Positions 16,638 through 42,322 of a stretch of 64,000 nt of DNA are shown one piece after another. Both the position numbers and the translations under genes were made by a program. The DNA is from Lytechinus pictus. Its lineage: Eukaryota. Each line of letters opens with the position of its first letter. Position 1 is the first letter of the stretch. The notes beneath the pieces were generated by a model that was not told where the DNA came from, made no database searches, and saw only the letters and a list, made by a program, of their open reading frames with translations. The stretch lies in NCBI RefSeq assembly GCF_037042905.1, contig NC_087250.1, positions 27,716,001 to 27,780,000 on the forward strand, read 5' to 3'.

Positions 16638-16655
16638 TGGTGTCAGGAGTGGGAT
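16638..16655 (+). promoter_or_regulatory. Primer-binding site complementary to tRNA-Leu 3' end
   Basis: TGGTGTCAGGAGTGGGAT is the reverse complement of the tRNA-Leu(CAG) end ...ATCCCACTCCTGACACCA. It lies 4 nt after the 5' LTR. Confidence 0.9.
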
Positions 16656-16791
16656 GGAGAATGTGAGGACATCTGGAACAGATGGCAGCAATACTTCAGG
16701 GGATGAATCAGTTTCTACACATTCTGGAATCAAGTTATCTACCAGTAGGGGAAGAAGGCAGAAGACCGAGGCTCTGATGGAGATCGCATAG

Positions 16792-18216: not shown

Positions 18217-18280
18217 TTACAACCAGGTACAATGGAGAAATCAACAAAGGAATTCTGAAGGGCATGTATGTGTCCAGGTA

Positions 18281-20698
18281 TTGAGAGGACTACACTGGGA
18301 GACGCTATTGGTCTATTTGGATGACGTGATCGTGTTCGGGAAATCCATTGATGAGGAGATGGCGAGGCTGCAGCAGGTGTTTGAACGTCTAAGACAGACA
18401 GGGCTGAAGTTGAAGCCAAAGAAGTGCAACTTGTTCAAGACTTCTGTTTCATACCTCGGGCACGTCGTCTCTGCAGAAGGTATATCGACTGAGAAGGACA
18501 AAACAGAAACAATCAGGACATGGCCCAGACCCGAGTCAGTGAGGGAGGTCCGTGGATTCTTAGGCCTTGCATCTTACTATCGTCGCTTTGTTGAAGGCTT
18601 TGCCAGAATTGCTAGGCCTCTGCATCAACTGACAGAGAAAGGACGGAAGTTTGAGTGGAACCAGGACTGCCAAGAAGCTTTCGAGGAACTGAAGCACAGA
18701 CTAGTCACGGCTCCAATACTGGTATACCCTACCGAGGAGGGAAGATTCATTCTGGACACAGACGCCAGCAATGATGGTATCGGCGGTGTACTCTCCAAGA
18801 TACAGAATGGCCAGGAACGGGTCATTGCCTATGGAAGCCGAGTCCTAAGCAAACCAGAAAGAAACTACTGTGTAACCCGTAAGGAACTACTTGCTGTAGT
18901 AGTGTACCTCAAACATTACAAGCAGTATTTGTATGGTCGCCACGTCCAGGTGATGACTGATCATGGAGCTCTGAGATGGCTGATGAATTTCCGGCAACCT
19001 GAAGGTCAGCTGGCAAGATGGCTGGAAGTCATATCAAGCTACGACATTGAGATTATACATAGGGCTGGAAGGATTCACAGCAATGCTGACGCTCTATCAC
19101 GGAGACCATGCAGGCAGTGTAAGCGAGAAGGAGGCTGCATATACGGAGGAGACACTGGGAATATCAACGTCATCACGGTGAGGAATGACAACCTAGCTGA
19201 CATCCAAGAGGCCCAGCAGGAAGATCCTTACATAAATCCAGTCAGGAATGCACTGGTGGAAGGGAGGAAGCCATCCCGGGAAGAGGCGACGGCATATCCT
19301 TTTAAGGTCAAGGTTCTTCTGGATCACTGGGACCAGCTAGAGGTCAAAGATGGTGTTCTGTACAGAAGGTGGGAATCAGAAGATGGAAGAGATGTCAGGT
19401 GGCGTTATGTACTACCTAAAGTTCTGATACCGGAGGTGCTACAGGACCTACACTCCTCTCCAATGGCAGGACATCTTGGTATGACGAAGACTCTACACAA
19501 GGTACAGGAACGTTTCTACTGGGTAGGAATGAAGGAAGAAGTCAGATCCTTCATTAGGCAATGTCCAGATTGCGCTCGCCGACAGAAGGCAGGACCAGGG
19601 AAAAGAGCTCCGCTACAGCAGAGGCAGAGTGTATATCCGATGGAGAGGGTCGCCCTGGACATCATGGGACCATTGCCAGTTACTGATGACGGGAACAAGT
19701 ACATTCTTGTGGTAGCTGACTATTATACAAAGTATGTCGAGGCATATGCAATACCAGATGAAAGAGCTGTAACAGTGGCACGGAAGCTAGTGGACGAATT
19801 CATCTGCCGCTATGGAGTTCCTAATGAGATACATAGTGACCAGGGCAGGAACTTCGAGTCCAACATCTTCCAAGAAGTGTGTCAACTACTGGGTGTCAGA
19901 AAGACAAGGACGACACCGTACAACCCAAAGAGTGATGGGATGGTTGAAAGGTTCAACCGTACGCTGATCAACATTCTTGCTACCCTATTGGATCCAGAGA
20001 AGCACCAGCGGGACTGGGACAGGTATATACCCTACGCCACAGCTGCATACAGAAGCTCCACGCACGACACAATCAAGGAGACTCCAAACATGATGATGTT
20101 TGGCCGAGAGGTTTCACAGCCTATCGATTTGCAGTTCTCCAAACAGGATGGAAGAGAGTGGACTGACTATGCTCAGCAGCTGAGGGAGAGAATGGAAGAG
20201 ACATACCAGAGGGCCCAGCAACGTAAGGGTGTTGAATTGAGACGCCAGAAAAGGAACTATGATCGGAAATCAGATGGGAAACTCTATGAAGCTGGACAGT
20301 TCGTATGGCTCCGCAACAATGCCAGGAAGAAAGGAGTCAGCCCCAAATTGTCACCTAAATGGGAAGGTCCCTACCAGGTGGTGTCTAGACTTTCCGACGT
20401 GACCTATCGTATCCAGAGATCCCCCAGGAGCAAACTAAGAGTGGTACACTTCGACCGCCTGAAGCTCTACAACGGATCTGATGTACCAGAGGCCTGGAGG
20501 ACTCAGCCAGCCGACCTAACAGACGAGGTGACTACCAATCGTGAACCAGATGTTGTGGATGATGGACAACCTACTCAGGCTTCTACTGAGACTACAGTGG
20601 AACCAGGAATTCCATTACCTGATGATTCTAGTGACCCAGACGTCAACCCTTCACGCTATCCTAGGAGGCGGAGAAGGCCTCCAGACTATTTATATTGA
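18281..20698 (+). CDS. pol: Gypsy pol remnant: C-terminal RT, RNase H, integrase (HHCC, DDE core, GPY motif)
   Basis: YLDDVIVF, LDTDAS, ELLAVV, TDHGAL, NADALSR, H..GHLG..C..C, ALDIMGP, SDQGRNF, GMVERFNRT and WEGPY are present. Protease and RT N-terminus are absent. Confidence 0.93.
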   Translation: MRGLHWETLLVYLDDVIVFGKSIDEEMARLQQVFERLRQTGLKLKPKKCNLFKTSVSYLGHVVSAEGISTEKDKTETIRTWPRPESVREVRGFLGLASYYRRFVEGFARIARPLHQLTEKGRKFEWNQDCQEAFEELKHRLVTAPILVYPTEEGRFILDTDASNDGIGGVLSKIQNGQERVIAYGSRVLSKPERNYCVTRKELLAVVVYLKHYKQYLYGRHVQVMTDHGALRWLMNFRQPEGQLARWLEVISSYDIEIIHRAGRIHSNADALSRRPCRQCKREGGCIYGGDTGNINVITVRNDNLADIQEAQQEDPYINPVRNALVEGRKPSREEATAYPFKVKVLLDHWDQLEVKDGVLYRRWESEDGRDVRWRYVLPKVLIPEVLQDLHSSPMAGHLGMTKTLHKVQERFYWVGMKEEVRSFIRQCPDCARRQKAGPGKRAPLQQRQSVYPMERVALDIMGPLPVTDDGNKYILVVADYYTKYVEAYAIPDERAVTVARKLVDEFICRYGVPNEIHSDQGRNFESNIFQEVCQLLGVRKTRTTPYNPKSDGMVERFNRTLINILATLLDPEKHQRDWDRYIPYATAAYRSSTHDTIKETPNMMMFGREVSQPIDLQFSKQDGREWTDYAQQLRERMEETYQRAQQRKGVELRRQKRNYDRKSDGKLYEAGQFVWLRNNARKKGVSPKLSPKWEGPYQVVSRLSDVTYRIQRSPRSKLRVVHFDRLKLYNGSDVPEAWRTQPADLTDEVTTNREPDVVDDGQPTQASTETTVEPGIPLPDDSSDPDVNPSRYPRRRRRPPDYLY

Positions 20699-21364
20699 AC
20701 ACTCATAACATTCAATCTGCAGATAGATGTGGAACTGTATTCTAGCTGTTTCTAAAACTGACAAATTGTTAATATATATCGTTCTATGGATCTACTGCGT
20801 GGTCTAAAAGAAGACGCAAGGATTCTGACGGTTGAAGAATGAACTAATCAGATAGAAGCACTGATCCACACAAACTGTTGAACCAATGTGGAAAACAACC
20901 CAATCTATACTGGACTTGTCTATATATAAATGTTTCGCCCTATTTATGTCGTAGTGTAAGTCATTTATTTGTTTTGTGAAACACCACACCATTATCTTTT
21001 CGGATAATATTGTTCAAGGAGGTGTCCTCGACTCACATATATTTATAAAACTAATTTTGCATAGAAGCACTCGCTGTAATGTTTATATTCAGAGTTAATG
21101 CCCACAGAGTGAACACGTTTCATATTGCTAATGAGAATGATGATAATGTTGCTATCAATGAGAGCTTACAGAAATAAGTTATGGAAGCTGCAGAGAGATT
21201 GATTGTACATAGTATCCATATAAGGAGTGTATATAAGAGGACATAACTCTCAGTATGATTAATACAGCGATGCATATAATTCAATACATTTTGGTTGCTT
21301 TGTCAAATTGTTTGGAATCCCTCTGCTAATGTGAGGATAAAACAAATGTGAGGACACATTCCTT

Positions 21365-21375
21365 GAAGAGGGGGG
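21365..21375 (+). promoter_or_regulatory. Polypurine tract
   Basis: GAAGAGGGGGG just before the 3' LTR. Confidence 0.85.
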
Positions 21376-21540
21376 CTGTGTAGCGAACCCGTCCGCTACG
21401 GTTTTTAGTTATAATGCAGTAAACGTAGATGGCGCTATAGCATTTGGTGCGTTAGAATTCAATGATCGACTTACGCAACGCACTGCGTAAGGCAGCTCTC
21501 GGAGACTATAAATAGCGGAGTTTCGCGGTGATCTCGTCAC

Positions 21541-21722
21541 AACTGGGCGTTGTGGCGTGTGCCTGCAATCCAAGCTGTGTGGGGAAGTTACAAATTGATG
21601 CAGAGGTTCGAGGTTCGAGCCCTGGTCACGTCTTTCGGATGGTGACGTTAAAGGTCGGTCCCAGACGTAAATAATCATATCTGATTGATACACGTCTGAC
21701 AAAAACTAAAATACACACACAC
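21541..21722 (+). mobile_element. SINE inserted in the 3' LTR (7SL-like head, B-box, Deu/Nin-like core, (CA)n tail)
   Basis: Absent from the 5' LTR. 11-bp TSD GATCTCGTCAC at 21530-21540 and 21723-21733. GGTTCGAGCCC B-box and ACACACAC tail. Confidence 0.85.
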
Positions 21723-23894
21723 GATCTCGTCACTTCGACGCTGGCGGAGGTCGGAGTCGGACGAAGAACCCCCTGCGCTCCACTCCAACTGGGCTGAATC
21801 AAGAAAAGGTTTGGAAATGAACATTGCTCGCTTAATTTCTACTACTGCAAATACAATTCTGGATAATTGGTGACGGTGTTAAAGGTGATAACATGTAAGA
21901 GATGCTGAATGTATAATTAAATTATGACCGTTGTCATAAACCAAATGTAATCATCGTCTCCAACCTGTGTGATCTATGGAATCCCTATTGACTTCTACAG
22001 TATAAGCCTTCCCATAGAGATTATACAGCTCCAATAGAAATCCCCTGTAATTCTATATTTCACCTGTTCACACTACCTCTCAACACTCCACCCCCATATA
22101 TTTTGGGAAAACGGAACACGCCCGGGTCTCTACATAACGCCATACGGAAACCGCTCGCATTAAGGATGGATAGCAATTCATCAACAGATGAAGGTGATAG
22201 AGGCAAGGAACAGGCCGGCCCCCCAGCATCTAGGACCCGATCCAAGACGGAGGGCCGCCACAGTATATTCATGAAGACATGCAGAGGCCCGTCTCATCAG
22301 AACAATGAAAGTGCTTAAAATATCAAAAATCTATCATTTCTTATCCGGTTTCAATGACATTGTCAGTATTTTAATTGTCTCATTTTACTTTTTCTATTCA
22401 AATCATATTATATCCAAGCCTAGAGTACCCCCTCTAAGCTTCCTTTCTTAGGCACGTCAACCCACATGAAATAATAATATTTGTTGACAACGAAACTACA
22501 TAATTTTTATCATGTCATCTCTGCCTTCCAGAAGGTGTACGTTGTTCATTGAATCACATGGATCCTTTTAATTTATACAGTCTTTTATATATCTATATAA
22601 TACACTGAAAAATGAAGAGTTAATGGACGAGGTGTAATGTTTAATACTTAATTATTATATTGCCCCCTTTCCTGTCCAAACGACGGTGTAATATTCGCAA
22701 CAATCACCCTCATGAACATTTGGTATTTGCATACTATACCAGCATGCTGACAATCACCATGTAGAAGCATGCTCATTATAACTGTAACGTTAAATATTTT
22801 TTAAATGATATGTTATTTTTCCTGTTTAACCATCCTTGTGATCCCATACAGAGTGTTGTGCATATGAAGAGTTTAGTTACAAAAGGGGTTAGGTCCACTA
22901 TGGACCATTTCGAGAAAAAACCATGTTTTTTATTCTCACTTAGGTATTGTTAAGTTGGTGGAATGACACTGTATATCACTGAGATGGACACGTGACTGAT
23001 TGAACTCTCAAATAACAAGTTTATTAACAACCACTTAGCAACCATGCGCATGCGTAAACATATATCATAACCAGGGCCGTAGCTGGAGGGGGGGGGGGGG
23101 GGTATGGGGGTGTGTACACCCCCCCCCCCCCCAACATTCATGGCAGTCGGCAAAATCATGTACCAGTTGCCAAAATGGAGGATAGGGGAAAAAGAAAGAG
23201 GGAAAGAAAGGAAGAGAAAAAAGAAAGAAGGAGAGAGGATAGAGAAAGAAAAAGAAAGAAAGAAAGAGAGAGAGAGGGGGAGAAGGGGGGGGGGAGAAAG
23301 TGAGATAGAAAGAAAGAAAGAAAGAAATAATAATAATGATAATAATAGGCATTTATATAGCGCCATCTATCTAGAAATATTCTATTCCGAGGCGCGTTGT
23401 TATTATTATTAGGTAGGCACTTATGAACCAAGTTTGAAAGGAGACTCGTAAAATTACGTCGCTCTCGCCGATGAATATTCATTAGATCGTGGTCGTGCGT
23501 GCTCAATACACACTGAGTACAGCTGGCATGCAGAAAGTTATATGCGAGGAACTTTGGCTCCAGAGACAAGTTGTCAAATAATGTGTGTGTGTGTGTACCA
23601 TCGGCTGGTAGTAGTCCATGCTGTACTTCAAACCGCGCGTCGGAGAGAGTGCATGGCAATTCGGTAAAACGAAGTTTCCGATATAAAGAAATAATATAAC
23701 ACTATGTACAGTACGTTGAGAGGCAAATGTCAGATCAGGGGAGGCAGGAGTACAATGGGCTTTTTTTAAGGGAAGAATAGTGTAGAATAAAAGGTATCAT
23801 ATATAGCCAATTGATCTAGGTGAGGGATTAAGCTTAGTGAACAATGATGACTTTGATGATTAAAGAAAAGAATGAATATATACCTTACCTGAAT

Positions 23895-25490
23895 ATTATG
23901 GTGAAGCAAATTTAAAAGGAGGTGAGGCAAGTTTCAATGGAGGTTTTTAAAAAGAATAAACTGTATTATGGTGAAGCCAATTTAAAAGGAGGTGAGGCAA
24001 ATTTCAATTGGAGGTTTTTTAAAAGAATAAACTGTTCTACAAATTTTAAAGGAGGCGAGGGAAGTTTCAATTGAGGTTTTTAAAAAGAATAAACTGTACT
24101 ACAAATTAGGGTGAAGCCAGTTTAAAAGGAGGTGAGGCAAGTTTCAATGGAGGTTTTTCAAAAGAATAAACTGTACTACAAATTTAAAAGGAGGTGAGGC
24201 AAGTTTCAATGGAGGTTTTTAAAAAGAAACTGTATTATGGTGAAGCCAATTTAAAAGGAGGTGAGGCAAGTTTCAATGGAGGTTTTTAAAAATAATAAAC
24301 TGCACTACAAATTTAAAAGGAGGTGAGGCAAGTTTCAATTGAGGTTTTTCAAAAGAATAAACTGCGTTAAGGTGAAGCCAATTTAAAAGGAGGTGAGGCA
24401 AGTTTCAATGGAGGTTTTTTAAAAGAATAAACTGTACTATAAATTTAAAAGGAGGTGAGGCAAGTTTCAATGGAGGTTTTTTTTTAAAGAATAAACTGTA
24501 TTATGGTGAAGCCAATTTAAAAGGAGGTGAGGCAAGTTTCAATGGAGGTTTTTTTTAAAGAATAAACTGTATTATGGTGAAGCCAATTTAAAAGGAGGTG
24601 AGGCAAGTTTCAATGGAGGTTTTTTTTAAAGAATAAACTGTATTATGGTGAAGCCAATTTAAAAGGAGGTGAGGCAAGTTTCAATGGAGGTTTTTAAAAA
24701 GAATAAACTGTACTATAAATTTAAAAGGAGGTGAGGCAAGTGGAGGTTTTTAAAAAGAATAAACTGTATTATGGTGAAGCCAATTTAAAAGGAGGTGAGG
24801 CAAGTTTCAATGGAGGTTTTTAAAAAGAATAAACTATACTACAAATTTAAAAGGAGGTAAGGCAAGTTTCAATGGAGGTTTTTTGAAAAGAATAAACTGT
24901 ATTATGGTGAAGCCAATTTAAAAGGAGGTGAGGCAAGTTTCAATGGAGGTACTACAAATTATGGTGAAGCCAATTTAAAAGGAGGTGAGGCAAGTTTCAA
25001 TGGAGGTTTTTAAAAAGAATAAACTGTACTAAAAATTTAAAAGGAGGTGAGGCAAGTGGAGGTTTTTAAAAAGAATAAACTGTACTACAAATTTAAAAGG
25101 AGGTGAGGCAAGTTTCAATGGAGTTTTTTTTTTAAAGAATAAACTGTATTATGGTGAAGCCAATTTAAAAGGAGGTGAGGCAAGTTTCAATGGAGGTTTT
25201 TAAAAAGAATAAACTGTACTATAAATTTAAAAGGAGGTGATCGAGGCAAGTTTCAATGGAGGTTTTTTAAAAAGAATAAACTGTACTACAAATTATATGG
25301 TAAAGCCGATTTAAAAGGAGAAGAGGCAAGTTTTAATGGAGGTTTTTAAAAAGAATAAACTGTACTACAAATTATGGTGAAGCCAATTTAAAAGGAGGTG
25401 AGGCAAGTTTCAATGGAGGTTTTTAAAAAGAATAAACTGTACTACAAATTATGGTGAAGCCAATTTAATAGGAGGTGAGGCAAGTTTCAA
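23895..25490 (+). repeat. Satellite array (~55-77 bp variable unit) in the left TIR
   Basis: Unit GGTGAAGCCAATTTAAAAGGAGGTGAGGCAAGTTTCAATGGAGGTTTTTAAAAAGAATAAACTGTA. Confidence 0.95.
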
Positions 25491-25814
25491 TATCTTTAAC
25501 AGTTTAATGTATTGATACATTATATTTCAACATAGGATGGATCATTTGCTAAGTTTTCATTAATGAATGCTCTCCTTGCCATTGTCAAATGGCCATGACC
25601 AAAGGATTTTAGCAACATTTCAGCAAGCTTTACATATGCATGCAAGACCAAAAATTGCTCAAAAGCATGACTTCATGAACAGACACAATACAGATTATGT
25701 TACTTGCCAAAAATTAATGTATCATTATTTATACTCGTACTAATTAAAAAAAAATCATATCATGTTTATTAAGAAGGTTTCAGCACCCCCTCCTCCCCCG
25801 CCCCAAATAAACAC

Positions 25815-26275
25815 TCAGTAAACAGAAGATAATTAATAAGACAAATATATAGAAATTTATTGAACAGTAAATGAATATAAAAATCATTTTCAATTTTTTT
25901 TCTCTCTTTCATAGTAAGTTTTCTATGAATGGCCAAAAAAACCCAGTAAACAGAAGATAATTATTGAAAGAAATATATAAGAAATTTATGGAACAGTAAA
26001 TAAACATAGAAAATGGTTTTCAATATTTTTTTTACATTATGAGTTTTCTATGAATCGCAAAAATAATAAACAGAAGATAATTAATTAGAGAAATATATAA
26101 GAAATTTATTGAACAGTAAAGAAACATAGATAATCGTTTCAAATATTGTATTTTCTTTGCAGTAAGATTTCTATGAATGGCAATAAAAAGCAATAAACAA
26201 AAGATAATTAATTCTAGAAATATATAATAAATTTATTGAAAAGTAAAATAAACATGGAAAATTGTTTTCAATCTT
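25815..26275 (+). repeat. ~125-bp AT-rich tandem repeat, about 4 copies
   Basis: TAAACAGAAGATAATTA...GAAATTTATTGAACAGTAAA...TTCTATGAAT at ~25818, 25947, 26067 and 26195. Confidence 0.8.
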
Positions 26276-26862
26276 GAAAATTGTCTTCCTAGCAGTACAA
26301 CTTTTGCTTCCATGATCAGAGCAAGGTCTAACATAGACTTTAGACAAAGCTCCATGTCTGATATAACATGTATTTCATTGCCTGATGTCTCATGACATCA
26401 GGCATCAAAAGTGCGAATCGGCGCACGGCATGCTCATGAATAATTCATAGCAAGCGGTAAAAGCAAAAATTGTTAAGGCCTCGCAACTAAAGTTGCTTGA
26501 TCTCGCATGTGTCCGCGGGTTTTGCCATTTCTCTTCTTCGTCAAACTAACCTTATTTTAGCCACTACTGCCTTGTCAAAAGGCTTGATCTAATAAATAAA
26601 GCATTATCTCCTTTGATGATGCGTCACCATTCACATTATGCAAATCCAGGTGAAGATCAATGCTGTGCTGTTTCTCTTTCATATTATAAACAATTTATTT
26701 TTTATGTGATAGCAAGACTGGTATTTTTACAAGCATTCTTTATTTTCTTCTTATGAAATTAATTTATACCCTGGCACACTGTTTGTGACCTTTTCTAGTA
26801 AATATTCAATGACTATGCAATTTGTGTAAAACAGGTATTTTTAAAGGCAGTTGGCAGCTTAA

Positions 26863-27454
26863 AGGTCAAGTCCACCTCAGGAAAATGCTGACTTGAATAA
26901 ATAGAGAAAATTCAAACTTGCATAATGCTTAAAATTTCATCAAAATCGGATGTAGAATAAGAAAGTTTTGACATTTTAAAGTTTCGCTTATTTTTTATAA
27001 AACAGTGATATACACAACAAGGTGAGTCAGTCGATGATGTAAATCACTCACTATTTCGTTTGTTTTTTATTGTTTGAATTATACAATATTTCATTTTCTA
27101 TAGATTTGACAATAAGGACCAACTTGACTGAACCATATAGTATCAAACAAAGCTAATTCCACATGTTCAGGGAGGAATTAATCGTTGTATCACTTGACAA
27201 TGAGGAGAAAATTAGAATATTTCATATTTCCTATAATAAAATACAAAAGAAATAGTGAGTGGATGACGTCATCAGTCTCCTCATTTGCATACAGACCAGG
27301 ATGTGCATATAACTGTTTTTTTACATTAAGCGAAACTTTAAAATGTCATAACTTTCTTATTTTACATCCGATTTTGATGAAATTTTCAGTGTTATGCTTG
27401 TTGATTATTTATCTTTTTATTCAAATCAACTTTTTGTTGGGGTGGACTTGTCCT
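26863..27454. mobile_element. Kolobok-like MITE (TTAA TSD)
   Basis: TTAA|AGGTCAAGTCCACC ... GGTGGACTTGTCCT|TTAA. The interior resembles 13627-14248. Confidence 0.85.
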
Positions 27455-27808
27455 TTAATGTAATTGTTGTAAAACAGTACTAAATTACTCCATAACAGTA
27501 TCTATTGTAAAAAATATTTGATTTGTATTAGGTCTACTCTGTGATGGTGTAGTTATACCTTGTTTTAATATTTTCATTACAAGTTGAACATTAAACTACA
27601 TCACACCAATGACAAAAGGGGTAGAAGCATAGGTTTGCAACCTTTACTTAAAAGTTAAGCTCTTTCAAGAAAAATTTAATCTTCACTATACAAAATGTGA
27701 ATATGGATTGTTTAACAACTATAAACAAGATTATGTTCTGCCTTCTTGAAATGGTTGCAGGAGGCTTATTCCGGCTTGTGTGGCCAATTTTATCTCCCGA
27801 CAACTTAA

Positions 27809-28562
27809 CCCTAACTAGGCCGGGCTTTTTGGGCTGTTCAGTGGCCGCCGGGGGGGGGGGGGGGTTGATTCCACCCCCCCTCCCCCCGAGACCTCGGTCG
27901 CCGATGGCGCGAGTGCCGCAAAAATTTGCACGCTGGTAGTGTGCGATGTAATCTACAAGGCTGTAATGATAAAATTTTCCAAAATAATGAGATTTTATTT
28001 TACATGAATTAATTATGCTAATTTATGCATAAATCATACTTTTTGTTGTAATTCACTAAATAAAGCTCCTAGAATGCTAATTTTTTTTTAAATTATTCTT
28101 TGTAGCATTCTTAACAATCTCAATTGAAAAAAAAAATTGTTTTGGAATTCAATTTCTTATGTATTTCATTGTTTTTCAACCTTTTGTTTTTCTTTGTTTT
28201 TTTTCACCAGATTTATTGCACAACCTTTTTGAAGCATAATTATGCTAAAATCAATTGATTTCAGCTGTTAAAAGTAAAAATAATCATATCTTTATGACAT
28301 AAGATGAAAAAACTCAATTTACATTGACTTTGTATATAAAATCACGTTTAGGAACAATTTTTGGTCAGACATGCACTTACAAAATGTTGCGTAATTTCAG
28401 AACCGTGTACATGGGGTCGTAAATTTTGTCTCAAAAGATGCGCAAAACTTTTGAAGTATAAACTCTGCAAGTGGTGCGGTCAAAAAAATTTGCGCGGCGG
28501 AATGATCGCAGAAAATGTTGAGGGGGGAGTTCATTCACCCCCCCCCCCCGGCCTGTTTAGGG
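27809..28562. mobile_element. piggyBac-like MITE (TTAA TSD, CCCT..AGGG)
   Basis: TTAA|CCCTAACTAGGCCGG ... CCGGCCTGTTTAGGG|TTAA. A second copy lies at 58803-59575. Confidence 0.88.
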
Positions 28563-30027
28563 TTAAGAATAGTTGGTCTGATCAACTTTAGACTTGGTCT
28601 AAGTGTGTATAATTGAGTAGAGACGATCTGATCAGATTTTGGGGTTAAAAGTCAATGACTCATCAAATACATAATATATCCTGTTCTTGCCGTAACTCAG
28701 TAAAGAATCATGTGTGGGATCAACTTCAAATTCAAAGTTAAGGTAAGGATCTGATTATATTGCAAGATTACAGATATGCAGTCGTTATATAAATTCAAAT
28801 AGTTCATTTTCACATTAACTGTACAGTTGTCAATAGGATGAAATTCAAACTTGGTTCCTGCATGCACATTTAAGGCAGATAATCTCAGTAAATAGTAGTA
28901 GTTCAAGTTCATAGGTCACAGACATCAATATGCATGTATACCCAAAATATCTCATATTCCCATGTCGTTATAGAATCATTTGAGGGTTCTACTTCCAATA
29001 TGGCTTATCTGTGCATAATTATGACTGGTGAAATGTTAGCCCATGAGGTCAAAGTGCATGGTATAACAGTCATGTCCTCAAAAAGCATATTCTTTCATCC
29101 AAGTGATATGTGTGACTACAGAGGTTTTGCATATTTAATGAGCTTGATGAAGACCAAAGCACAAGCCACGAGAGGATTAGGATGAATCTGGCCAATTTGC
29201 TCATTAGCATAGGGACCTGCACTCTGACTGATAACTTTTTAATCTCCTGAATTCTTTGAAAGGATCAATTTGAAAATTACCTCTTGTGTGAGTGAAGATT
29301 TTTAGTCAAATTTCTATTGTCAGCAAGGTCATGTTAAAAATGTAAATATATAATATATTCTTGGTCTAGCAAAGGCAGTGCCATAAATTTTGACTGCATG
29401 TAGTTGAGAATCCATCTAGTTAGTCATAAAACATCAACGGCTAATTGTATCCATTCAACTTAGGGTTTCTTACGATACTTGCTAATGTTAAATCATGGAA
29501 GAATCACCTGTGTAAATAATGATACATTGTTTGTTAGCATTAATCGGCATGAGGCTGATCAATTTCTTTGATAACTATTTGATGCAAGATTATATGACCT
29601 TTGTGTTTTATTCAGTATTTTTAGAATGTCTCATTTCATTTTGAACATAATTTGCGACCATTTTTGCTGCCCACTCAACAGTCTTTGAAGATGTTTGTGC
29701 AAAAACTTGATTAGAATGCATACCGTTATCACACAGTACTTGCCAACTTTTAGTATCTTTTATCATGATCCTAGGCCTGCCAGTACTGAAAATAAACGTA
29801 TTTTAAACTGTATTATAGCGTATATTTTTATTTACTCAAACTGCAGTTGCTTTCCATGATCATGTCCTGGTTTTATAATACTTGCTGTTAACTAATGTAA
29901 TTGTCACTTGTTTTTTCTAACAGCGAGAATATATTGCTATATGTGTCCAGCCACCCCAATACCAACAATAAATACATTGATTTAAAGATTCTCATTGATC
30001 TTGAACAATCACATCCTAAGCTGTAAA

Positions 30028-33000
30028 TTGATTGATTGATTGATTGATTTTATTTGTCAGGCAACTATGAACAAGTACAAGAAAATATGAACAGAATTGT
30101 ATACCTTGACAGGATAACCCATGAAAGCCGAGATGGCTTATTTCCAATGGGGTCCTTACATCAGTAATTGAAGACAATGTACATCTATGAAAAAACACCT
30201 ATAGAAATCTACAAACTACATAAATTAAGTCTAGACCACTAAATTAACACGATAAATTGTAAAACTTAATATATAAAAAGACAAAAGCAAATAAGTTTGC
30301 CATGAAAAACACGCAGTCAACAAAATATGATTAAAATAATTGTAAAACAGGTTGAGTAAACGATCATTACTTCTAAGTTACATATGATAATTATACTAAT
30401 AATCAATTTTTAGGTAGCGGTAAATGCATCGTAACTAATACAAGATTCATGAATCGTAAAACCTAAGATATGAAAAAGTACAAATAAGTTTGACATCAAA
30501 CTTTCACGCAAACAACAAAAGATGATGAAACAATGTAAAACAAGTTGATAAAAAAAAAATCATATCTAAATAGTTATATATAAGACTACAATATTTAACA
30601 TTACAGAGTGGGGACGTTTTTAAAGTGTTGTTTCAATACTCTTTTAAATTGTGAAAAAGTCTTAACCGATTTAACATGATTAGGGAGGGAATTCCAAAAA
30701 TGTATACCTTTATAATAAAATGTGTTACCAATTTGACCTTTTCTCATAGGTACAACAAAGTTAAACAGACTATTTCTTGTTTCATGCCCGTGAATATTAG
30801 ATGACCGTGTAAAATTTTTTGATATGTAATGATATTCGTTTGAATAGAAAATTTTATGAATATGGTGAAGTATAAGTTGTTGCGACCTCAAGTCTATGCG
30901 AAGAAGGCCAGCTTTTTCGATTTCATTCTTCCCAACATGTGTTCTTGGGTGTAAGCAGGTAATAAATCTAACAATCTTATTTTGAATAATTATAAACTTT
31001 TTTTGATCAACCTTTCCAAGACTGCAGTACCATGCTGCATTAGCATAATCAAATAAACACTGTATTAATGAAAAGCTTAAAATGCGTCTGGATTTCGTAT
31101 TCATGCAATTTTGGTACCGGTATAGAAATTTCAAGCGAGCATTAGCTTTTTTGACAATAGAGTCAACCATGGATGTACATGAGAGATCACTATTTAATAT
31201 CAGGCCTAAATACTTCACGGAATTCTGTCTCTTAATTAATTGATTGTTATAGTATATATTGAAATCATCTGTATGCTTAGACTTACCCCGCGAACAAAAC
31301 AAAATACTTTCAGTCTTACCAACATGTAAGCTAAGCTTGTTATCTATCATCCATTTAACACAATTTGATAATTCTAAGCTAAGTTTTTCACCGATCAGCT
31401 TAGGACTTGTATCAGAATAGAGTAAAACACTGTCGTCTGCATATAAAAGTAATTTACTTTCATCAACACAAATACACATATCATTGATATAGCACATAAA
31501 AAGAATGGGACCTAATATGCTCCCCTGTGGAACTCCACACTTTATAGGCATAGAATATGAAAGTACATTTTGCATGGATACCACTTGACGGCGATTGGTC
31601 AAGTAAGACCTAAACCAATTCAAGCATGCTGAATTCAAACCCATCACTTCTAATTTCTTTAAGAGTATTTCATGATTAACCGTATCGAATGCTTTTTGTA
31701 AGTCAAGAAGAACCATGCCAACATAACGGCCTTCGGAAATTTCATTCCTAACAAAATCCAACAAGTGAATTAAACATGTTTCAGTAGAATAACCATTCCT
31801 AAAACCAGACTGAAATTCATAAATGATTTTGTATTCTTTAAAGTATTTCTCAATTTGAGAATACACGCATTTCTCCAAAATTTTCGACACTATGCTTAAC
31901 ACACTAATAGGTCTATAATTGCCAACGTGAGTTTTGTCTTTCTTTTTGTGTAGTGGTGTGACTTTAGCGATTTTCATTTCATCAGGGAAGGTACAAGTTG
32001 AAATAGATAGGTTAATAATGTAAGTTAAAGGTATAAAGACGTTTTTTGCACCATCCTTTAAAAATCTAGCAGGAACCAAGTCAAGTCCGGTACTTTTTGA
32101 TATTTTCAACTTGGATAATTCATCTAATACAAACTTTTCTGTGACAGGAGAAAAATTAAAACAGCCTCTTTGTATACCTTTATTGTCGTATAGTTTTTTC
32201 AAATTAGGACTGTCGGCCCCAAACTCACTTCTGTCCGTAATGGGGAGCTCACAGGCTAATTTATCGGCCACTGTTGTAAAATAATTGTTGAATTCGTTGG
32301 CTATCTTTAGATTATCATGACATAATTCCCCTTCAATATTAATAACACTTTTCTGAATATTTTTTTGTTTGTTTTTTAAACCTAACTCTTTGAGATTCTT
32401 CCATAATTTCCTAGAATCATGTTTATTGTCTTCAATTTGATTTTGGAAAAATTCGTCTTTAGCTTTCCTCACTTTTCTTTGTACCACATTTCGCAATAGT
32501 TTAAATTTCCTTTTGAGTTCTAAATTACCAATATCCTTTTTCATTTTCCTGAAAGCTATATTTCGTTGTCTTATCAAACCAATAATTTCACTGTTCATCC
32601 ATCTTTCTGTTCTTTGCTTAATTCTTACTTGTTTTAGAGGCGCACACTTATCAACTACTGACATGAAAATACTTTTGAAGAGTGACCAAGCAATATTTAC
32701 TTCATTACATTCAAATATAACAGACCAATTGATTTGAGATAAAACGAAATTAAAATCATTTTCACAATAGTTTTTCATACATCGAATGCTTATAGTTCTA
32801 TGTTGCCCGAATACAGGCCTGATAAGTTTCCTTGAACAATACGTTAAAAAGTGATCACTTAAGCCAATTTCAAAAACACCACTTTGACAAATATTTTCTT
32901 CTTTACTACAAATTACATGGTCTATTAATGAAGAAGTGGTAGGTGTAGTTCGGGTGGGTTTCGTTATAAGTTGGCTCAAACCATATAAATTCAAAATATT

Positions 33001-33699
33001 CTTGTATCTTTTGGTCAGTGCTGATTGTTGTAATAGACAAATATTCATGTCCCCTAAAAGTATAACCTCATCATCTTTTGTTAATATGTCCAATATATCA
33101 GGGAGAGAATCAATAAAGTGATTGTCTCTCGGGGGTCTGTAGACTACACCTAAAGTAATAGGCTTTGTATGTGGTAATAGAATGTCGATCCACAATGATT
33201 CAATACCATCAGGTGTAAGATCTTCTCTTAGATTAAATGCAATATCATTTTTAATATAAAGGCAGACCCCACCACCATGGTCGCCTGCACGATCTCGTCT
33301 TAATATAGAATAACCATCGATATAAATTTCTTCATCATTTATGGACGAATTCAACCATGTTTCAGTAATTGCAATTGCTGAAATTCTACTTTCATTGAGA
33401 AGGACGCGTAGTTCAGGAACTTTATATAAGATGGATCTGATATTTAAATGAACGAAATGCAACCCTTTTGCTTTAAATATATTATTAAATGATTTGTATA
33501 AAACAGCATTATCAATTCCAGTAGGTGTGTTAAATTCAGGGATAGGAGGTGCATTAACTGTTGAGGTGGGTTGAACATCAATAAAGGATTGTGTAAAAAT
33601 GGAGTCACAAAATGGCGGCAATGAACAGGTTAAACATATCCAATTCTCATTTGGGTTTTGATTTATCTTGTTAATATTGATCAATAATATCCCTCGCAA
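30028..33699 (-). mobile_element. CR1/L2-group LINE, 5'-truncated, with 3' UTR and (TCAA)n tail
   Basis: Minus-strand ORF2 and 3' UTR 30028-30600, with AATAAA followed by a TCAA-repeat tail. Confidence 0.9.
30601..33699 (-). CDS. LINE ORF2: partial PHD, APE endonuclease, reverse transcriptase
   Basis: Uninterrupted 1032 aa with WICLTC, HLNIRS, ITETWL, GGGVCLY, LGDMN, SDHF, NYRPIS, QSGFR, DLQKAFD, GVPQGSILGP, LYADD and KYLG. The true start is lost. Confidence 0.93.
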   Translation of the reverse strand: MRGILLININKINQNPNENWICLTCSLPPFCDSIFTQSFIDVQPTSTVNAPPIPEFNTPTGIDNAVLYKSFNNIFKAKGLHFVHLNIRSILYKVPELRVLLNESRISAIAITETWLNSSINDEEIYIDGYSILRRDRAGDHGGGVCLYIKNDIAFNLREDLTPDGIESLWIDILLPHTKPITLGVVYRPPRDNHFIDSLPDILDILTKDDEVILLGDMNICLLQQSALTKRYKNILNLYGLSQLITKPTRTTPTTSSLIDHVICSKEENICQSGVFEIGLSDHFLTYCSRKLIRPVFGQHRTISIRCMKNYCENDFNFVLSQINWSVIFECNEVNIAWSLFKSIFMSVVDKCAPLKQVRIKQRTERWMNSEIIGLIRQRNIAFRKMKKDIGNLELKRKFKLLRNVVQRKVRKAKDEFFQNQIEDNKHDSRKLWKNLKELGLKNKQKNIQKSVINIEGELCHDNLKIANEFNNYFTTVADKLACELPITDRSEFGADSPNLKKLYDNKGIQRGCFNFSPVTEKFVLDELSKLKISKSTGLDLVPARFLKDGAKNVFIPLTYIINLSISTCTFPDEMKIAKVTPLHKKKDKTHVGNYRPISVLSIVSKILEKCVYSQIEKYFKEYKIIYEFQSGFRNGYSTETCLIHLLDFVRNEISEGRYVGMVLLDLQKAFDTVNHEILLKKLEVMGLNSACLNWFRSYLTNRRQVVSMQNVLSYSMPIKCGVPQGSILGPILFMCYINDMCICVDESKLLLYADDSVLLYSDTSPKLIGEKLSLELSNCVKWMIDNKLSLHVGKTESILFCSRGKSKHTDDFNIYYNNQLIKRQNSVKYLGLILNSDLSCTSMVDSIVKKANARLKFLYRYQNCMNTKSRRILSFSLIQCLFDYANAAWYCSLGKVDQKKFIIIQNKIVRFITCLHPRTHVGKNEIEKAGLLRIDLRSQQLILHHIHKIFYSNEYHYISKNFTRSSNIHGHETRNSLFNFVVPMRKGQIGNTFYYKGIHFWNSLPNHVKSVKTFSQFKRVLKQHFKNVPTL

Positions 33700-35235
33700 G
33701 TACTTGATTGAATGCAGAAGTTTGGTGAGAGCTTCAACAAATAAGAGAACAAGATTTGGGGTTCACTTAAGCATGCGATGTGTAATATGTAGTTCAACTA
33801 CTTAGCAGTGAGCAAAACACGGATATCAAAGTCTTGTATTTTGTCTTCAACTTTTACAACCTCACATTTTGACAGTATATGAAGAATTTTTTTTTTCGGA
33901 TAAACCAATATTCTAAATATGCGTTTGGAAAACTGAATTACTATTTTGGTTATTTTCTACGAACCTTCCCTGGCAACTTATGATATTTGGGTGGCTGGCC
34001 ACATTTTGTTTTGTTGAGAAAAAATATCAAAGAGTATATGAAAAAAATATTTATGTAAAAAAGCTTGCCTAGCTGTTAGTATTTTTTCTATTGTACTTTG
34101 TCATGTAACTCTGATAGATTTCATTTCGTTACACAAAATGGGGTTCAGTATTCAGAAAAACCATTAACCTTGCCTCAACCACAACAGTACTTGCCAAACT
34201 GGATAAATCAACATTATATCAAGCTGTGTAGAAGAACTTAATGATCATGTAGATACCATTAAGTGCATACATATGTAATGTCTTTCAAGCTGTATGACAT
34301 AGATATTCTTTTCCATCCATCAGCTTCTACTATTTTTTAAAGGTTAGTATTTATTGTCATGTTGGCAAATTGTGAAATAGTTCATGTTGAAATATGTTGT
34401 ATTACCTGTCATGCATTTGTAATATTATTTTTTTAGAATATATTCTGTCATCATTTTCAGTACATAAAAGTTTATTCAATGTATGCCTTTACCAAAGTTG
34501 GCCATAAGCACAGTGGGTACCAACTATCACTGAAGACAACACAACAATTACTCAAAATATATGTATAGCCTTATAAATGTACAAGTGAATAAAATCTACT
34601 ATGACTACATAGCTTTTCTTTGTGCAACACAGTCATATTTCATTTGGATCAATTCAAAATTGAGTGGTGTTTTGGGGGTAATGCTATGGTAACTGCAGTT
34701 CTGTTGTCCTCTGACAGTTGGTGTTGTAATGATGTGATTGGCAGTGTGTGGACGTCATGTTATAAGAGAAAAAAGAACGTTAAAGTGAGAGTGTTGGCTT
34801 TGAAATGGACTCAACCTATGAAAGTTAAAGTTTGTGCTGCAGAAACTGGTGTGGTAGTGGGATGATAATGATGATGAGGAACAGGGCTGGTATTCAATGT
34901 TACTCTTAAAGCCACAATTTTAAGTATATTTTACTCAGTATTTTGCAAAAGTCACACAAAAAACAGAAACTTGCATGTGTTAGTAATCGTACTCAAATGT
35001 CAAAATAATTTTGACACTATAGCGACATACTTTGATGAGTACTTTCACTCAATGAAGGTACTTTGAAAACTCATCTTGTCGAGTATATTTCATTTGACAC
35101 TATAGTGACACATCAAGTGAGTAAATTTGAATAACTCAATCTAATGAGTAACTTAACCCAGTGTAATGAGTATGTTTAAAGTATATTTACTGACTTTTTG
35201 AGTATGTGAGCATATTACACACTTGATTAGTTTTA

Positions 35236-36125
35236 GCGATAATCTGACGATTAACTGCGCTGAGAAAATGAGTAGTATATGACTCTTGTATGTGAGTTTT
35301 GGGGTGTTGAGATCATGCATCCAAGTAATTTTACTCGGATCTCGCGTTAATTGCTTGCGCGCACACGTGATACCGGCCAAAATATGTGCAGAGCATGAAG
35401 ACTTTTCTGGTAAGTTCTACATGTCTTTTTATTTATTTTCCCCCTTTTCTTCTATAATTACTTTTCTTGACAATAATAGCTTAGACCTACATGTATGGGG
35501 CAAACATAAATGCTATTTATGGTGACAACAGGGTGCATTGATCTACATTCTCATCCATCCGAGGCTCACGCCTCTCGGTTTGGGTAACCACACACCAGCC
35601 TGTTGTTGCGCCGCTACCCCGAGGGCAAATAAGTGACATCGTCCATGATTTATGTAATCATGGACGATGTCACTTATTTGCCCTCCTCATAAATGACTCC
35701 AGCAATCGTAGCGGCACACTGGCCTTCACTCCCTTCTGGCCCCGGGGTAGCGGCGCAACAACAGGCTGGTGTGTGGTTACCCAAACCGAGAGGCGTGAGC
35801 CTCGGATGGATGAGAATGAAGATCAATGCACCCTGTTGTCACCATAAATAGCATTTATGTTTGCCCCATACATGTAGGTCTAAGCTATTATTGTCAAGAA
35901 AAGTAATTATAGAAGAAAAGGGGGAAAATAAATAAAAAGACATGTAGAACTTACCAGAAAAGTCTTCATGCTCTGCACATTTGGCCGGTATCACGTGTGC
36001 GCGCAAGCAATTAACGCGAGATCCGAGTAAAATTACTTGGATGCATGATCTCAACACCCCAAAACTCACATACAAGAGTCATATACTACTCATTTTCTCA
36101 GCGCAGTTAATCGTCAGATTATCGC
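35236..36125. mobile_element. Near-perfect palindromic element (~385-bp arms) with probable TTTA TSD
   Basis: 35236-35621 is almost the exact reverse complement of ~35743-36125; the ORF track gives near-identical peptides on opposite strands. TTTA at 35232-35235 and 36126-36129. Confidence 0.85.
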
Positions 36126-37284
36126 TTTACCTGGCTGTGAGTTTTTTCACCCGTTCTGCTATCATACCTTACAAACTTGAAGAAAAACTCATTTGTACGG
36201 ATTGTTTTACATACTTTCACTGACAGGGATACTCAAGAAAAGTAGTTAATAAATAATGTCCTTGAAAAAAAGATCAGGTGTAACAGAAACCCAGATTCTC
36301 GAGTAAAAACACATACGTTACGAATTTTTGCACTTAATTCTTTATGTAAAAAACAATTTTACTCATGGAAAATAGTTCTCGTTTTTTGTGTGTAAAATAC
36401 TTATCCATCTTTGGTATTCAATTGCATTTTTTTTGGGCTAAATATTTAGCTTAAATGTAAGTCAGCCATCTACTAGACTTAAGTCTACATATACAAAAAT
36501 GATACGCACAGAAATACATTCACACATTTGGCACTATTTGGCTCAAAACTTATAACATCACAATGGGTATTAGTATTTACTTCAATTTGGATAAGGTAAA
36601 TTCTGAGATCTGATCTGCATACAAGTTTAAGCATTTTGTTAAGCTAGCCAAATTGCTAAGTAAAATACTTACAAAATCAAAACTTAGAATTTAATAGGCG
36701 GCCGAGGTATTATTTTTTTCCAGAGGACATGTACAGATTTCTTGTTGACAATTAAAGGATGACATGATGATTATTTTGCATAACCTGGCTTATTAAAAAA
36801 AATATTATGTATATTCCATTTCAGTGATAATTGCATTTTTGGGGAGGGGATATTACATATTTGGGGAATGGAAAAGTTCAAAATGAATGCATACTTAACC
36901 TATTTACGCAGGGGGGGGGGGGGGGGCTCTGAGCTCTGCGATTTAAAAAAAAAGTATTTTGCATGTTTTGAGACCAGTTTTGCGAAGCCCGGGTACTGGG
37001 TTCTGAAAATTACCAAACAATTTATAAGTGCATATCAGACAAAAATGGCTCAAAATTGTGATATTTGTGTACCACGTCAATGGAATATGCGTTTTCAACC
37101 AAAATTCATAAATGCCTAATTGTTTTTAGTTTTGTTGAACTAAACTGATTTATTTTATGCTGTTACGAGAGTCCCAGCATCGTTGAAAAAAAAAACAATG
37201 CAATACAAAGGTAAAAAACCCAAGAAATACATTATCAAAGAACACCACAAAGAGTTTCTAAACCAAAAATTAGAACATTTGGAG

Positions 37285-39840
37285 CTTCACCATAATACAG
37301 TTTATTATTTAAAAAATCCTCCATTGAAACTTGCCACGATCACCTCCTTTTAAATTGGCTTCACCGTGATCTGTATGACACTAAATATTCTTTTAAAAAA
37401 CCTCCATTGAAACTTGCCTCACCTCCTTTTAAATTGGCTTCACCATAATTTGTAGTACAGTTTATTCTTTTTAAAAACCGAAACTTGCCTCACCTCCTTT
37501 TAAATTGGCTTCACCATATAATTTGTAGTGCAATTTATTCTTTTTGAAAACCTCCATTGAAACTTGCCTTACCTCCTTTTAAATTGGCTTCACCATAATT
37601 TGTATTACAGTTTATTCTTTTTAAAAACCTCAATTGAAACTTGCCTCAGATCACCTCCTTTTAAATTGGCTTCACCATAATTTGTAGTACAGTTTATTCT
37701 TTTTAAAAACCTTCATTGAAACTTGCCTCACCTCCTTTAAAATTGGCTTCACCATAATTTGTAGTACAGTTTATTCTTAAAAAAAAACCTCCATTGAAAC
37801 TTGCCTCACCTCCTTTTAAATTTGTAGTACAGTTTATTCTTTTTAAAAACCTCCATTGAAACTTGCCTCACCTCCTTTAAAATTGGCTTTACCATAATAC
37901 AGTTTATTCTTTTTTAAAAACCTCCATTGAAACTTGCCACGATCACCTCCTTTTAAATTGGCTTCACCGTGATCTGTATGACACTAAATATTCTTTTAAA
38001 AAACCTCCATTGAAACTTGCCTCACCTCCTTTTAAATTGGCTTCACCATAATTTGTAGTACAGTTTATTCTTTTTAAAAACCGAAACTTGCCTCACCTCC
38101 TTTTAAATTGGCTTCACCATATAATTTGTAGTACAATTTATTCTTTTTGAAAACCTCCATTGAAACTTGCCTTACCTCCTTTTAAATTGGCTTCACCATA
38201 ATTTGTATTACAGTTTATTCTTTTTAAAAACCTCAATTGAAACTTGCCTCAGATCACCTCCTTTTAAATTGGCTTCACCATAATTTGTAGTACAGTTTAT
38301 TCTTTTTAAAAACCTTCATTGAAACTTGCCTCACCTCCTTTAAAATTGGCTTCACCATAATTTGTAGTACAGTTTATTCTTAAAAAAAAACCTCCATTGA
38401 AACTTGCCTCACCTCCTTTTAAATTTGTAGTACAGTTTATTCTTTTTAAAAACCTCCATTGAAACTTGCCTCACCTCCTTTAAAATTGGCTTTACCATAA
38501 TACAGTTTATTCTTTTTTAAAAACCTCCATTGAAACTTGCCTCACCTCCTTTTAAATTTGTAGTACAGTTTATTCTTTTTAAAAACCTCCATTGAAACTT
38601 GCCTCACCTCGTTTTAAATTGGCTTCACCATAATTTGTAATACAGTTTATTCTTTAAAAAAAACCTCAATTGAAACTTGCCTCTCCTCCTTTTAAATTTG
38701 TAGTACAGTTTATTCTTTTTAAAAACCTCCATTGAAACTTGCCTCACCTCCTTTTAAATTGGCTTCACCATAATTTGTAATACAGTTTATTCTTTTTAAA
38801 AACCTCCATTGAATTAACTTGCCACACCTCCTTTTAAATTTGTAGTACAGTTTATTCTTTTTAAAAACCTCCATTGAAACTTGCCTCACCTCCTTTTAAA
38901 TTGGCTTCACCATAATACAGCTTATTCTTTTTTAAAAACCTCCATTGAAACTTGCCTCACCTCCTTTTAAATTGGCTTCACCATAATTTGTAATACAGTT
39001 TATTCTTTTTAAAAACTTCCATTGAAACTTGCCTCACCTCCTTTTAAATTGGCTTCACCATAATTTGTAATACAGCTTATTCTTTTTTAAAAACCTCCAT
39101 TGAAACTTGCCTCACCTCCTTTTAAATTGGCTTCACCATAATTTGTAATACAGTTTATTCTTTTGAAAAACCTCCATTGAAACTTGCCTCACCTCCTTTT
39201 AAATTGGCTTCACCATAATACAGTTTCTTTTTAAAAACCTCCATTGAAACTTGCCTCACCTCCTTTTAAATTTGTAGTACAGTTTATTCTTTTTAAAAAC
39301 CTCCATTGAAACTTGCCTCACCTCCTTTTAAATTGGCTTCACCATAATTTGTAATACAGTTTATTCTTTTTAAAAACCTCCATTGAATTAACTTGCCACA
39401 CCTCCTTTTAAATTTGTAGTACAGTTTATTCTTTTTAAAAACCTCCATTGAAACTTGCCTCACCTCCTTTTAAATTGGCTTCACCATAATACAGCTTATT
39501 CTTTTTTAAAAACCTCCATTGAAACTTGCCTCACCTCCTTTTAAATTGGCTTCACCATAATTTGTAATACAGTTTATTCTTTTGAAAAACCTCCATTGAA
39601 ACTTGCCTCACCTCCTTTTAAATTGGCTTCACCATAATACAGTTTCTTTTTAAAAACCTCCATTGAAACTTGCCTCACCTCCTTTTAAATTTGTAGTACA
39701 GTTTATTCTTTTTAAAAACCTCAATTGAAACTTGCCTCGCCTCCTTTTAAATTGGCTTCACCATAATACAGTTTATTCTTTTTAAAAACCTCCATTGAAA
39801 CTTGCCTCACCTCCTTTTAAATTCGCTTCACCATAATATT
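37285..39840 (-). repeat. Satellite array in the right TIR (inverse of 23895-25490)
   Basis: Unit TACAGTTTATTCTTTTTAAAAACCTCCATTGAAACTTGCCTCACCTCCTTTTAAATTGGCTTCACC. Confidence 0.95.
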
Positions 39841-40459
39841 CAGGTAAGGTATATATTCATTCTTTTTTTTAATCATCAAAGTCATCATTGTTCACTAATT
39901 AGCTTAATCCCTCACCTAGATCAATTGGCTATAATGCCTTTTATTCAACACTATTCTTCCCTTAAAAACACCCCATTGTACTCCTGCCTCCCCTGATCTG
40001 ACATTTGCCTCTCAACGTATTGTACATAGTGTTATATTATCTCTTTATATCTGAAACTTCGTTTTACCGAATTGCCATGCACTCTCTCCGACGCGGTTTG
40101 AAGTACAGCATGGACTACTACCAGCCGATGGTACACACACACACACGTTATTTGACAACGTGTCTCTGAGCTCTGGAGCCAAAGTTCCTCGCATATAACT
40201 TTCTGCATGCCAGCTGTACTCAGTGTGTATTGAACACGCACGACTACGATCTAATGAATATTCATCGGCGAGAGTGACGTAATTTTACGAGTCTCCTTTC
40301 AAACTTGGTTCATAAGTGCCTACCTTATTATTATCACCCCGGCTTTAGCTCGAGCTGCCTTTCAGCGCTCATGCATTCAAGGAATTAATCCTGCCAGGTA
40401 CCCATTCACCTCACCTGGATCGAGTGCAGCACAATGTGGATAAATTCCTTGCTGAAGGA

Positions 40460-40600
<141 letters not shown>

Positions 40601-42322
40601 GAAGAAAAAAAAAGGAAAGAAAAAAAGGGTACTAACTACGAAGAAGGTTACGACTTTTAGAGTAAAGACAACCAGTTGGCAAATCCAAGTCCATGTAGCC
40701 AGGCTTAGAGCCCTACTAGTCAGCAAAATACAAAGGACAAAACAGATGGAGCTATAATAACACACAAAGTAAGCTCCCGGTCCTCCCCCAATGTAATTGA
40801 GTTTGCAAATTATACCACAATTATTGACGATTTAACAAACACATTAGTTTTGTAAAATTAGAAGCAAGACTAGGTAAATAAATATGGGGTGGGATGAATT
40901 TCCAAGGTTTAAGTTGAATAATCAAAGCCAAAGTATAGTTGGCAAATTATAAAGTGGGCCTATTAAAGTGGCAGAACACTATACGCTCTACCAGTCAGCA
41001 AAGTGATATACAAGTACTGCCCCGTTTCAGATCTGAAAATAACAGAACTAAAGACTTAAAAAAACTGGTAACTCTTCAGTTGGCAAATTCATGAAGACAA
41101 GTCTACAACTTGTAGACTTGTCTACAAGTTTGCAGTTGGCAAAAAACACAAAAATGTTCTAAGTTATTTTTACTAAATTCTGTCGCCGAAGATTTTTTTT
41201 TAATTTGTGGTGTCAGAATGTGCTTGGGGTGGGGATGGGTGGGAGTGGGGGCAGGTTGGGGTTGCATCATTCCTGGTGCTCTTATTGTCTGACTAATGAG
41301 ATATATAGTCCTGTTGTATTTTAAGTCCATATTAAGATTATGCACCAAATTATCTCCTCGCACTTCAAGTTATTATTGTTTTATGTAGTGCCATATGCTT
41401 TTTTCATGACTATATACTTAAAGTGATTGCCCCCTTTTAAGGCCTTAATAAAACATTTCCAGTCTGTGCTTACGTCCGCATTGGTGTGGACCGATATAGA
41501 TACAGGGCTGGTGTTAAATCAACACTGGCGTTTTTGCAGTGCACGAATTCCTAAAGACAGTCCTTAAAATGTCCCTTTTTCTGATCTAATTATAATAAAT
41601 GGCTTGTCATTTGGGCACTTTTTGGAGTTTTAAAAGTGAAATACGAAGGCTTTCGTGCACACTTTTGGTGAATTTTGTGATAATTTTCAATAGAAAAATA
41701 AGTTTTTAAAAATTTAGGGGTCATCATGCCCCCGTATTGTCGTTGCGAGCATTTTGGGGCCAGGGTGAAATCGCCCCAAACGCCTCAAACAGACACTCCA
41801 AAATGTATTTGAAGTGCATTATTAGAACTGAAACTTATCTCTACACCAGGAAAAATTAACTTAACAAAATAAGCAACAAGAAATATTTATAAAAAGTAGA
41901 AGGGCCTGTACAAGTACACTGATATTTCACTCTCTCAGCTCATATGCACTTGATCGACTTCCATCGAGGATTCGGGCTAAATTCCGCCCGCCACTTCCGG
42001 GGACCAACCAACGTAGTATTTCGATGAAGAGCACTCCGTCGATTCACCGGTTGTCCCTACGATACACGCGCGCCTATGGGGATTGTGAACTGTAGGAAAA
42101 ATCGTATAAAATTACACTTTTTGATATTTCTACGAAGACGAAGTTATATAGAAAATGAAGAATATTACAATCAGACCATATCCCTAGAAAATTGCTTCAA
42201 GAAATGTCATTATGAAGAGGAAATGGACAAAAATTTGTGAAGAAAAATCACGAAAAAGGAAATCGCATCATGAATATTGATATCATGGGCGGTCCCACAT
42301 TTGCATGTTATAGCGAGTTTTC

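Follow-up and report, generated by a model that had tools for sequence, protein, structure and literature searches.

We identified a foldback-type element of about 17 kb with inverted arms at positions 23412 to 40324 of a 64,000-nucleotide stretch of Lytechinus pictus DNA (hereafter the window), based on self-comparison and repeat finding across the full 64 kb. Very probably, this is a non-autonomous, cut-and-paste DNA transposon of the foldback type that arrived in one insertion into the (TTA)n run of an abundant repeat. Its probable 9-bp target-site duplication (TSD) points to the Mutator superfamily, an assignment that we consider likely.

Each arm, or terminal inverted repeat (TIR), consists of a unique outer domain followed by a tandem array. 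The outer domains (left, 23412 to 23894, + strand; right, 39838 to 40324, − strand) agree at 465 of 477 aligned bases (97.5%), with 12 substitutions and 5 indels. The left array (23895 to 25491, + strand) spans 1597 bp with 23 full units and the right array (37284 to 39837, − strand) 2554 bp with 34 full units, giving arms of 2.1 kb and 3.0 kb. Variants of a single unit, 62, 70, or 77 bp long, make up both arrays, which run in opposite orientation and end at different phases. The inverted similarity of the two arms stops where the arrays stop, and self-comparison and arm alignment revealed no inner domain common to both. The element starts with GG and ends with CC, and TTATTATTA stands on either side, at 23403 to 23411 and at 40325 to 40333 (both + strand). 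Two features of the foldback class are present: long inverted terminal arms made of several domains, and arm tandem repeats that vary in number (23 versus 34 units). A preliminary description of this DNA, made from the letters alone, had proposed near-identical inverted ends, outer domains of about 480 bp with arrays in opposite orientation, and G..C termini beside a matching flank word; our self-comparison and alignment reproduce all of these. RNA reads on the outer TIR domain (23418 to 23681) were strand-biased, 15 versus 2 and 13 versus 0 in the terminal bin, and faded inward; at these low counts, and provided that first mates are antisense, the bias would correspond to transcription that reads outward from ends of the family.

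We aligned four public read runs, two of DNA (X7 and X10) and two of RNA (X23 and X24), to positions 23330 to 23965; the left outer domain was matched in all four. The left flank (23330 to 23411) is half of a cut, high-copy, SINE-like repeat with a depth of 800 to 1000 in the two RNA runs, where 348 of 1064 reads (X23) and 380 of 1240 reads (X24) stop at 23411. The consensus of their loose ends is the sequence to the right of 40324 (agreement 0.66 to 0.67), which makes 40325 to 40480 the other half of the target repeat, and a GAAA microsatellite lies beyond both halves. The flanks thus represent a single abundant repeat that was split at one position, which indicates a single insertion. Both the single insertion and the rejoining of the flanks into one sequence, there called SINE-like, had been suggested previously, and the 348 and 380 RNA reads that cross from the left to the right flank bear them out. 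The right half has a 77% match to a relative at 58113 to 58175. That relative lies within a related SINE-like repeat (58000 to 58383, − strand) whose head is the same and whose middle differs. At 23363, 104 and 115 RNA reads are clipped and run on into this second type.

Because the TSD sits in a microsatellite, one could picture two separate insertions 12 kb apart around native DNA, or an assembly artefact, and we regard either as highly improbable. The common cut point of the two repeat halves and the GAAA beyond each speak against both. Moreover, an inverted duplicate made by the assembler is unlikely because the arms differ, by the 12 substitutions and 5 indels as well as in unit order, and because four left-arm bases are private. 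At 23461, 23502, 23582, and 23690, found among the 40 of 95 differences listed, outside reads match the base of the right arm, so these are changes of the left arm.

The insertion site is a (TTA)n run with five triplets to the left of the element and four to the right. In reads of the intact target, six triplets are the commonest state, and a four-triplet state occurs in 54 X23 reads. A 9-bp duplication follows from the nine triplets here as against six in the commonest intact state. Given the (TTA)n site, 9 bp is a best estimate rather than proof; a 3- or 6-bp duplication could also be accommodated, since the target run varies in length and the agreement is only 0.66. TTA borders both ends of the element, and the TSD of PIF/Harbinger elements is a 3-bp TTA/TAA; a 3-bp duplication would need an empty site of eight triplets, compared with the commonest six. 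In the earlier proposal of a 9-bp TSD, the duplication itself therefore stands and 9 bp fits best, while the exact length is an estimate drawn from a (TTA)n run.

Exact internal repeats at periods of 419, 574, and 603 bp in the right array reflect recent internal duplications, and the left array has exact internal repeats at periods of 71 and 506. As these periods differ, each array has changed length independently. Within the arrays, a 21-bp subunit recurs about twice per unit, and we built a weight matrix (PWM) solely from 93 of these subunits. Outside the arrays, the matrix ranks positions 11 to 31 of the two TIRs second and third among 119572 positions: 23422 to 23442 on the left (+ strand, score 13.8) and 40294 to 40314 on the right (− strand). 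One unrelated site beats both termini. The terminal score was reached by 2 of 1000 shuffles of the outer domain (p = 0.002), in a test picked after a first look at the local-alignment result. The plain local-alignment test of termini against array was borderline (p = 0.012, with an equally high score in 268 of 11754 control windows). Judged from these sequence comparisons, the evidence that the terminal and array motifs may be kin is good but not overwhelming. By analogy with better-studied elements, the 21-bp motif is a putative transposase-binding site.

The element has relatives outside the locus. A 453-bp contig in X7 covers 23463 to 23922 with 15 differences and joins outer domain to array. 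In X10, the terminal ~115 bp is covered by many contigs, as is the array; the summed depth, which is not a copy number, is 2.7 to 3.5e5 over 23418 to 23505, 0 to 4e3 over 23528 to 23879, and 0.9 to 3.1e6 over the array unit. This suggests modular ends in the X10 organism, where the central part of the outer domain would be much rarer than either the array or the terminal ~115 bp. Variant outer-domain and array copies in X7, X10, X23, and X24 indicate a dispersed repeated family, seen in these runs as matches to the left arm rather than as paired ends. Patterns of the terminus and of the array unit each had zero exact matches in JGI metagenomes, and no description of the family was found in the literature searched, a scope that leaves aside most subscription journals and Repbase. 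Altogether, the reading as a foldback-type TIR element of a repeated family holds: the inverted arms are modular and carry tandem arrays, the flanks rejoin, and outer domain and array recur in the two DNA runs. The idea that the element disperses satellite DNA fared less well, as self-comparison and repeat finding located no array unattached to the element elsewhere in the 64-kb window, and summed read depths do not give copy numbers.

Between the arrays lies an interior of 11792 bp (25492 to 37283), which we describe as non-coding and which consists of 6858 bp of repeats (58%) and 4934 bp unique in the window; this non-repeat portion matches almost nothing else there. From left to right, the repeats include 3.6 tandem copies of ~120 to 128 bp (25806 to 26276), a nested TTAA-bounded MITE with arms 83% identical and relatives elsewhere in the window (26859 to 27458), and a nested non-autonomous element with TTAA-CCC...GGG-TTAA ends (27805 to 28566, + strand) that is 92% identical to 58799 to 59580. 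We take the last of these, along with its related repeat, to be piggyBac-like. A nested LINE follows (30031 to 33762, − strand, outer limits approximate), with (TTGA)n at its 3' end and an open frame of 1053 amino acids (30601 to 33762) that matches RVT_1 (E = 2e-35) and Exo_endo_phos (E = 5e-13) in Pfam; we found no convincing TSD around it. Next is a nested, near-perfect palindromic element of 892 bp (35235 to 36126) with arms 96.7% identical, in which we also observed a second, 65-bp hairpin near the center and no clear TSD. The interior closes with a truncated copy of the piggyBac-like repeat (36884 to 37283, − strand), 72 to 76% identical to its relatives.

The LINE was the only one of 73 interior open reading frames (ORFs) to score in Pfam: the 72 non-LINE ORFs had no match at curated cut-offs, six of them having matches below those cut-offs at E values of 0.01 to 0.05, and 12 read-through interior frames gave zero Pfam matches. 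Three protein-looking ORFs (97, 86, and 64 aa) were rejected as chance-level; the 97-aa length was reached in 34.5% of 200 resamplings. The best composition score of an interior ORF was 13.2, compared with a control 95th percentile of 16.4. Large protein collections were queried with parts of two of the 12 interior frames: HMMER with one minus-strand frame of 28570 to 29802 returned zero hits among 1.84 billion representatives, and a protein word search with 26236 to 26694 yielded no related sequence among 59 candidates, which is weak evidence. Rfam at gathering score gave nothing over 22500 to 41500. Thus, Pfam, the coding-signal test, and the two frames compared with protein collections yielded no transposase or gene remnant in the interior, and the present copy appears to lack a MULE DDE transposase. 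A search of read runs with 25492 to 30030 had a best share of 0.33, with no RNA run among the matches listed; these shares were not used.

The origin of this interior is best approached through its junctions. On the right, the array meets the truncated piggyBac-like repeat ~260 bp into that repeat, at a 4-nt AAGC; this microhomology was judged from related copies and presumes that the truncated copy resembled its relatives. Such a join, at microhomology, between an array and an internal point of an old repeat suggests DNA that was either captured or brought next to the array by a deletion. On the left, there is a 60-bp match to a decayed piggyBac-like copy (E = 9e-6), and since a longer alignment did not clearly beat shuffles, we do not claim that a piggyBac-like repeat was cut there. 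Interior repeats match their relatives at as little as 72 to 76% identity, a divergence far exceeding that of the 97.5%-identical arms, and the interior looks like old host-type DNA rich in other transposons. Within the reading as a single foldback element, we lean slightly toward the interior having been captured by the arms.

A tentative alternative is that the single element retains an old middle domain native to the family, possibly an autonomous body that has decayed completely, altered by nested insertions and internal deletions, with the likeness of the arms kept by conversion or recent re-transposition. Microhomology junctions are a product of deletions too, and the right junction would look the same after an internal deletion; complete nested elements explain about 6 kb of the interior. 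There are precedents as well: the middle of Tetris is variable and non-coding (PMC4079207), and Galileo copies swap and lengthen TIR sequence (PMC3573991). However, no coding remnant was found in the interior, the two arms have no common inner domain, and the arrays end at different phases. The interior is also CpG-poor, with an observed/expected ratio of 0.36 compared with 0.96 in the left outer domain and 0.57 to 0.81 in flanking regions, although the arrays are CpG-poor too. A composite of the Ising type would mean that two family members, adjacent and in inverted orientation, were stripped of their inner ends and mobilized jointly along with the intervening host DNA. It would account for a host-like interior as well as for the 12 differing sites and the unlike unit order of the arms, and composites formed by pairs of foldback elements have a precedent in Drosophila (PMC6431247). 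Each arm has one outer end only, though, with neither inner termini nor a further outer-domain copy on the inner side, and a composite requires two extra deletions, so we consider it improbable.

Even if capture is preferred, it does not follow that the whole unit jumped. Complete nested elements totalling ~6 kb may have landed only once the foldback was in place, so that its size when it jumped need not have been 17 kb. It is rather unlikely, in our estimation, that template switching in the arrays brought 5 to 12 kb of host DNA into the foldback, which afterwards transposed as a 10- to 17-kb unit. The view that the element moved with a 12-kb cargo is accordingly not borne out, as those nested elements may post-date the insertion and the right array was recently duplicated.

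Our preferred explanation, capture by a single foldback element, would run as follows. A transposase supplied from elsewhere would have recognized both GG ends together with the 21-bp motif 11 to 31 bp inside each. The arrays may represent multiplied transposase-binding sites, by analogy with footprinted Galileo, and would have lengthened independently through block duplication, the duplications themselves being observed. A break in the arrays may then have cost the element its original middle or led to the replacement of that middle, and repair by microhomology-guided template switching would have joined the arms to old host-type DNA. The LINE and several MITEs could have been in that DNA already or inserted afterwards.

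The window contains several further elements and reading frames. A second foldback-like element of 2.8 kb (45248 to 48051), unrelated to the first, has 222-bp terminal arms that are 97% identical and more inverted similarity inside. An LTR retrotransposon (15945 to 22262) with TG..CA ends is flanked on either side by a GTAT duplication; its LTRs are 98.7% identical, and its gag/pol-like frames are in pieces. Palindromic or tandem-repeat-armed elements lie at 3904 to 4449, 42323 to 43371, and 49522 to 50976, with units of 16/42 bp, 31 bp, and 10/31 bp, respectively, and a 65-bp tandem array of at least 18 copies (62813 to 64000) continues past the window end. A single open frame of 562 amino acids (6259 to 7947, + strand) has a Cys/His-rich N-terminal segment that is B-box/TRIM-like by eye, and a 217-aa open frame (56638 to 57291, + strand) resembles the initial coding exon of some host gene.

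The locus offers one clearly bounded case in which a terminal motif appears to have given rise to satellite-like arrays in foldback arms, and in which those arms appear to have closed around foreign DNA. The general picture is unchanged, and the main value lies in repeat annotation of the Lytechinus pictus genome. Should a parent locus and several copies of 17 kb come to light, they would show that DNA transposons move host blocks exceeding in size those so far catalogued for animals; if the reading of a 10- to 17-kb capture were true, this would be an animal Pack-foldback family that moves large host blocks and seeds a 62- to 77-bp satellite.

Sea urchins have elements of comparable build: TU elements carry long modular inverted repeats, with short tandem repeats outermost and a unique domain inside, which is the reverse of the order here. 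No paper describing TU structure was found in the literature searched. More generally, foldback is a structural class at which several superfamilies have arrived (PMC3169594). Among its members, the Tm1 Mutator/Foldback elements of root-knot nematodes resemble ours in composite TIRs of variable length, mostly 9-bp TSDs, and mostly non-autonomous copies; in contrast, one Tm1 copy has a Phantom-type MULE transposase, and the Tm1 motifs are ~14 bp (PMC3169594).

The closest layout is that of Tetris, a foldback of Drosophila virilis with TSDs of 8 to 10 bp, in which a unique outer domain is followed by inner tandem repeats, as here (PMC4079207). In Tetris, the TIRs are up to 1735 bp long, the units measure ~220 bp, and an inner domain is optional, whereas the present element has arms of 2.1 and 3.0 kb, units of 62 to 77 bp, no common inner domain, and an 11.8-kb middle (PMC4079207). 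The comparison is one of layout and not of sequence; still, the Tetris unit shares 37 bp with its outer domain, a likeness paralleled by the motif shared between terminus and array here (PMC4079207). Galileo F likewise has tandem repeats inside a unique outer domain, and the tandem repeats in long Galileo TIRs vary independently, as in our arms (PMC3573991). For Galileo, a member of the P superfamily, footprinting shows extra transposase sites in the tandem repeats (PMC3688188). It has a known transposase and 7-bp TSDs, whereas for our element no transposase was found and binding is predicted from the motif (PMC3688188, PMC3573991). Tandem repeats on the inner side of the TIR, which the preliminary description noted in what it took for an unusually large member, are therefore the same layout as in Tetris (PMC4079207) and Galileo F (PMC3573991).

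The enclosed DNA can be compared with animal Pack-TIRs, which arise by template-switching gap filling with microhomology, most of them in place and without transposition (PMC8277862). In one such case, Ssk-FB4, breakage occurred in the repetitive foldback arms, and FB4 TSDs are 9 to 10 bp (PMC8277862). On the capture reading, Pack-TIRs and Ssk-FB4 would share with our element foreign DNA between TIR arms and a breakpoint with probable microhomology; they differ in that parent loci were identified, compared with an 11.8-kb interior and no gene fragment found here (PMC8277862). The Pack-TIR survey limited interiors to 5 kb, with 10 kb tried for human alone (PMC8277862), and an interior above that 5-kb limit could be the sole departure of the Lytechinus element from catalogued cases.
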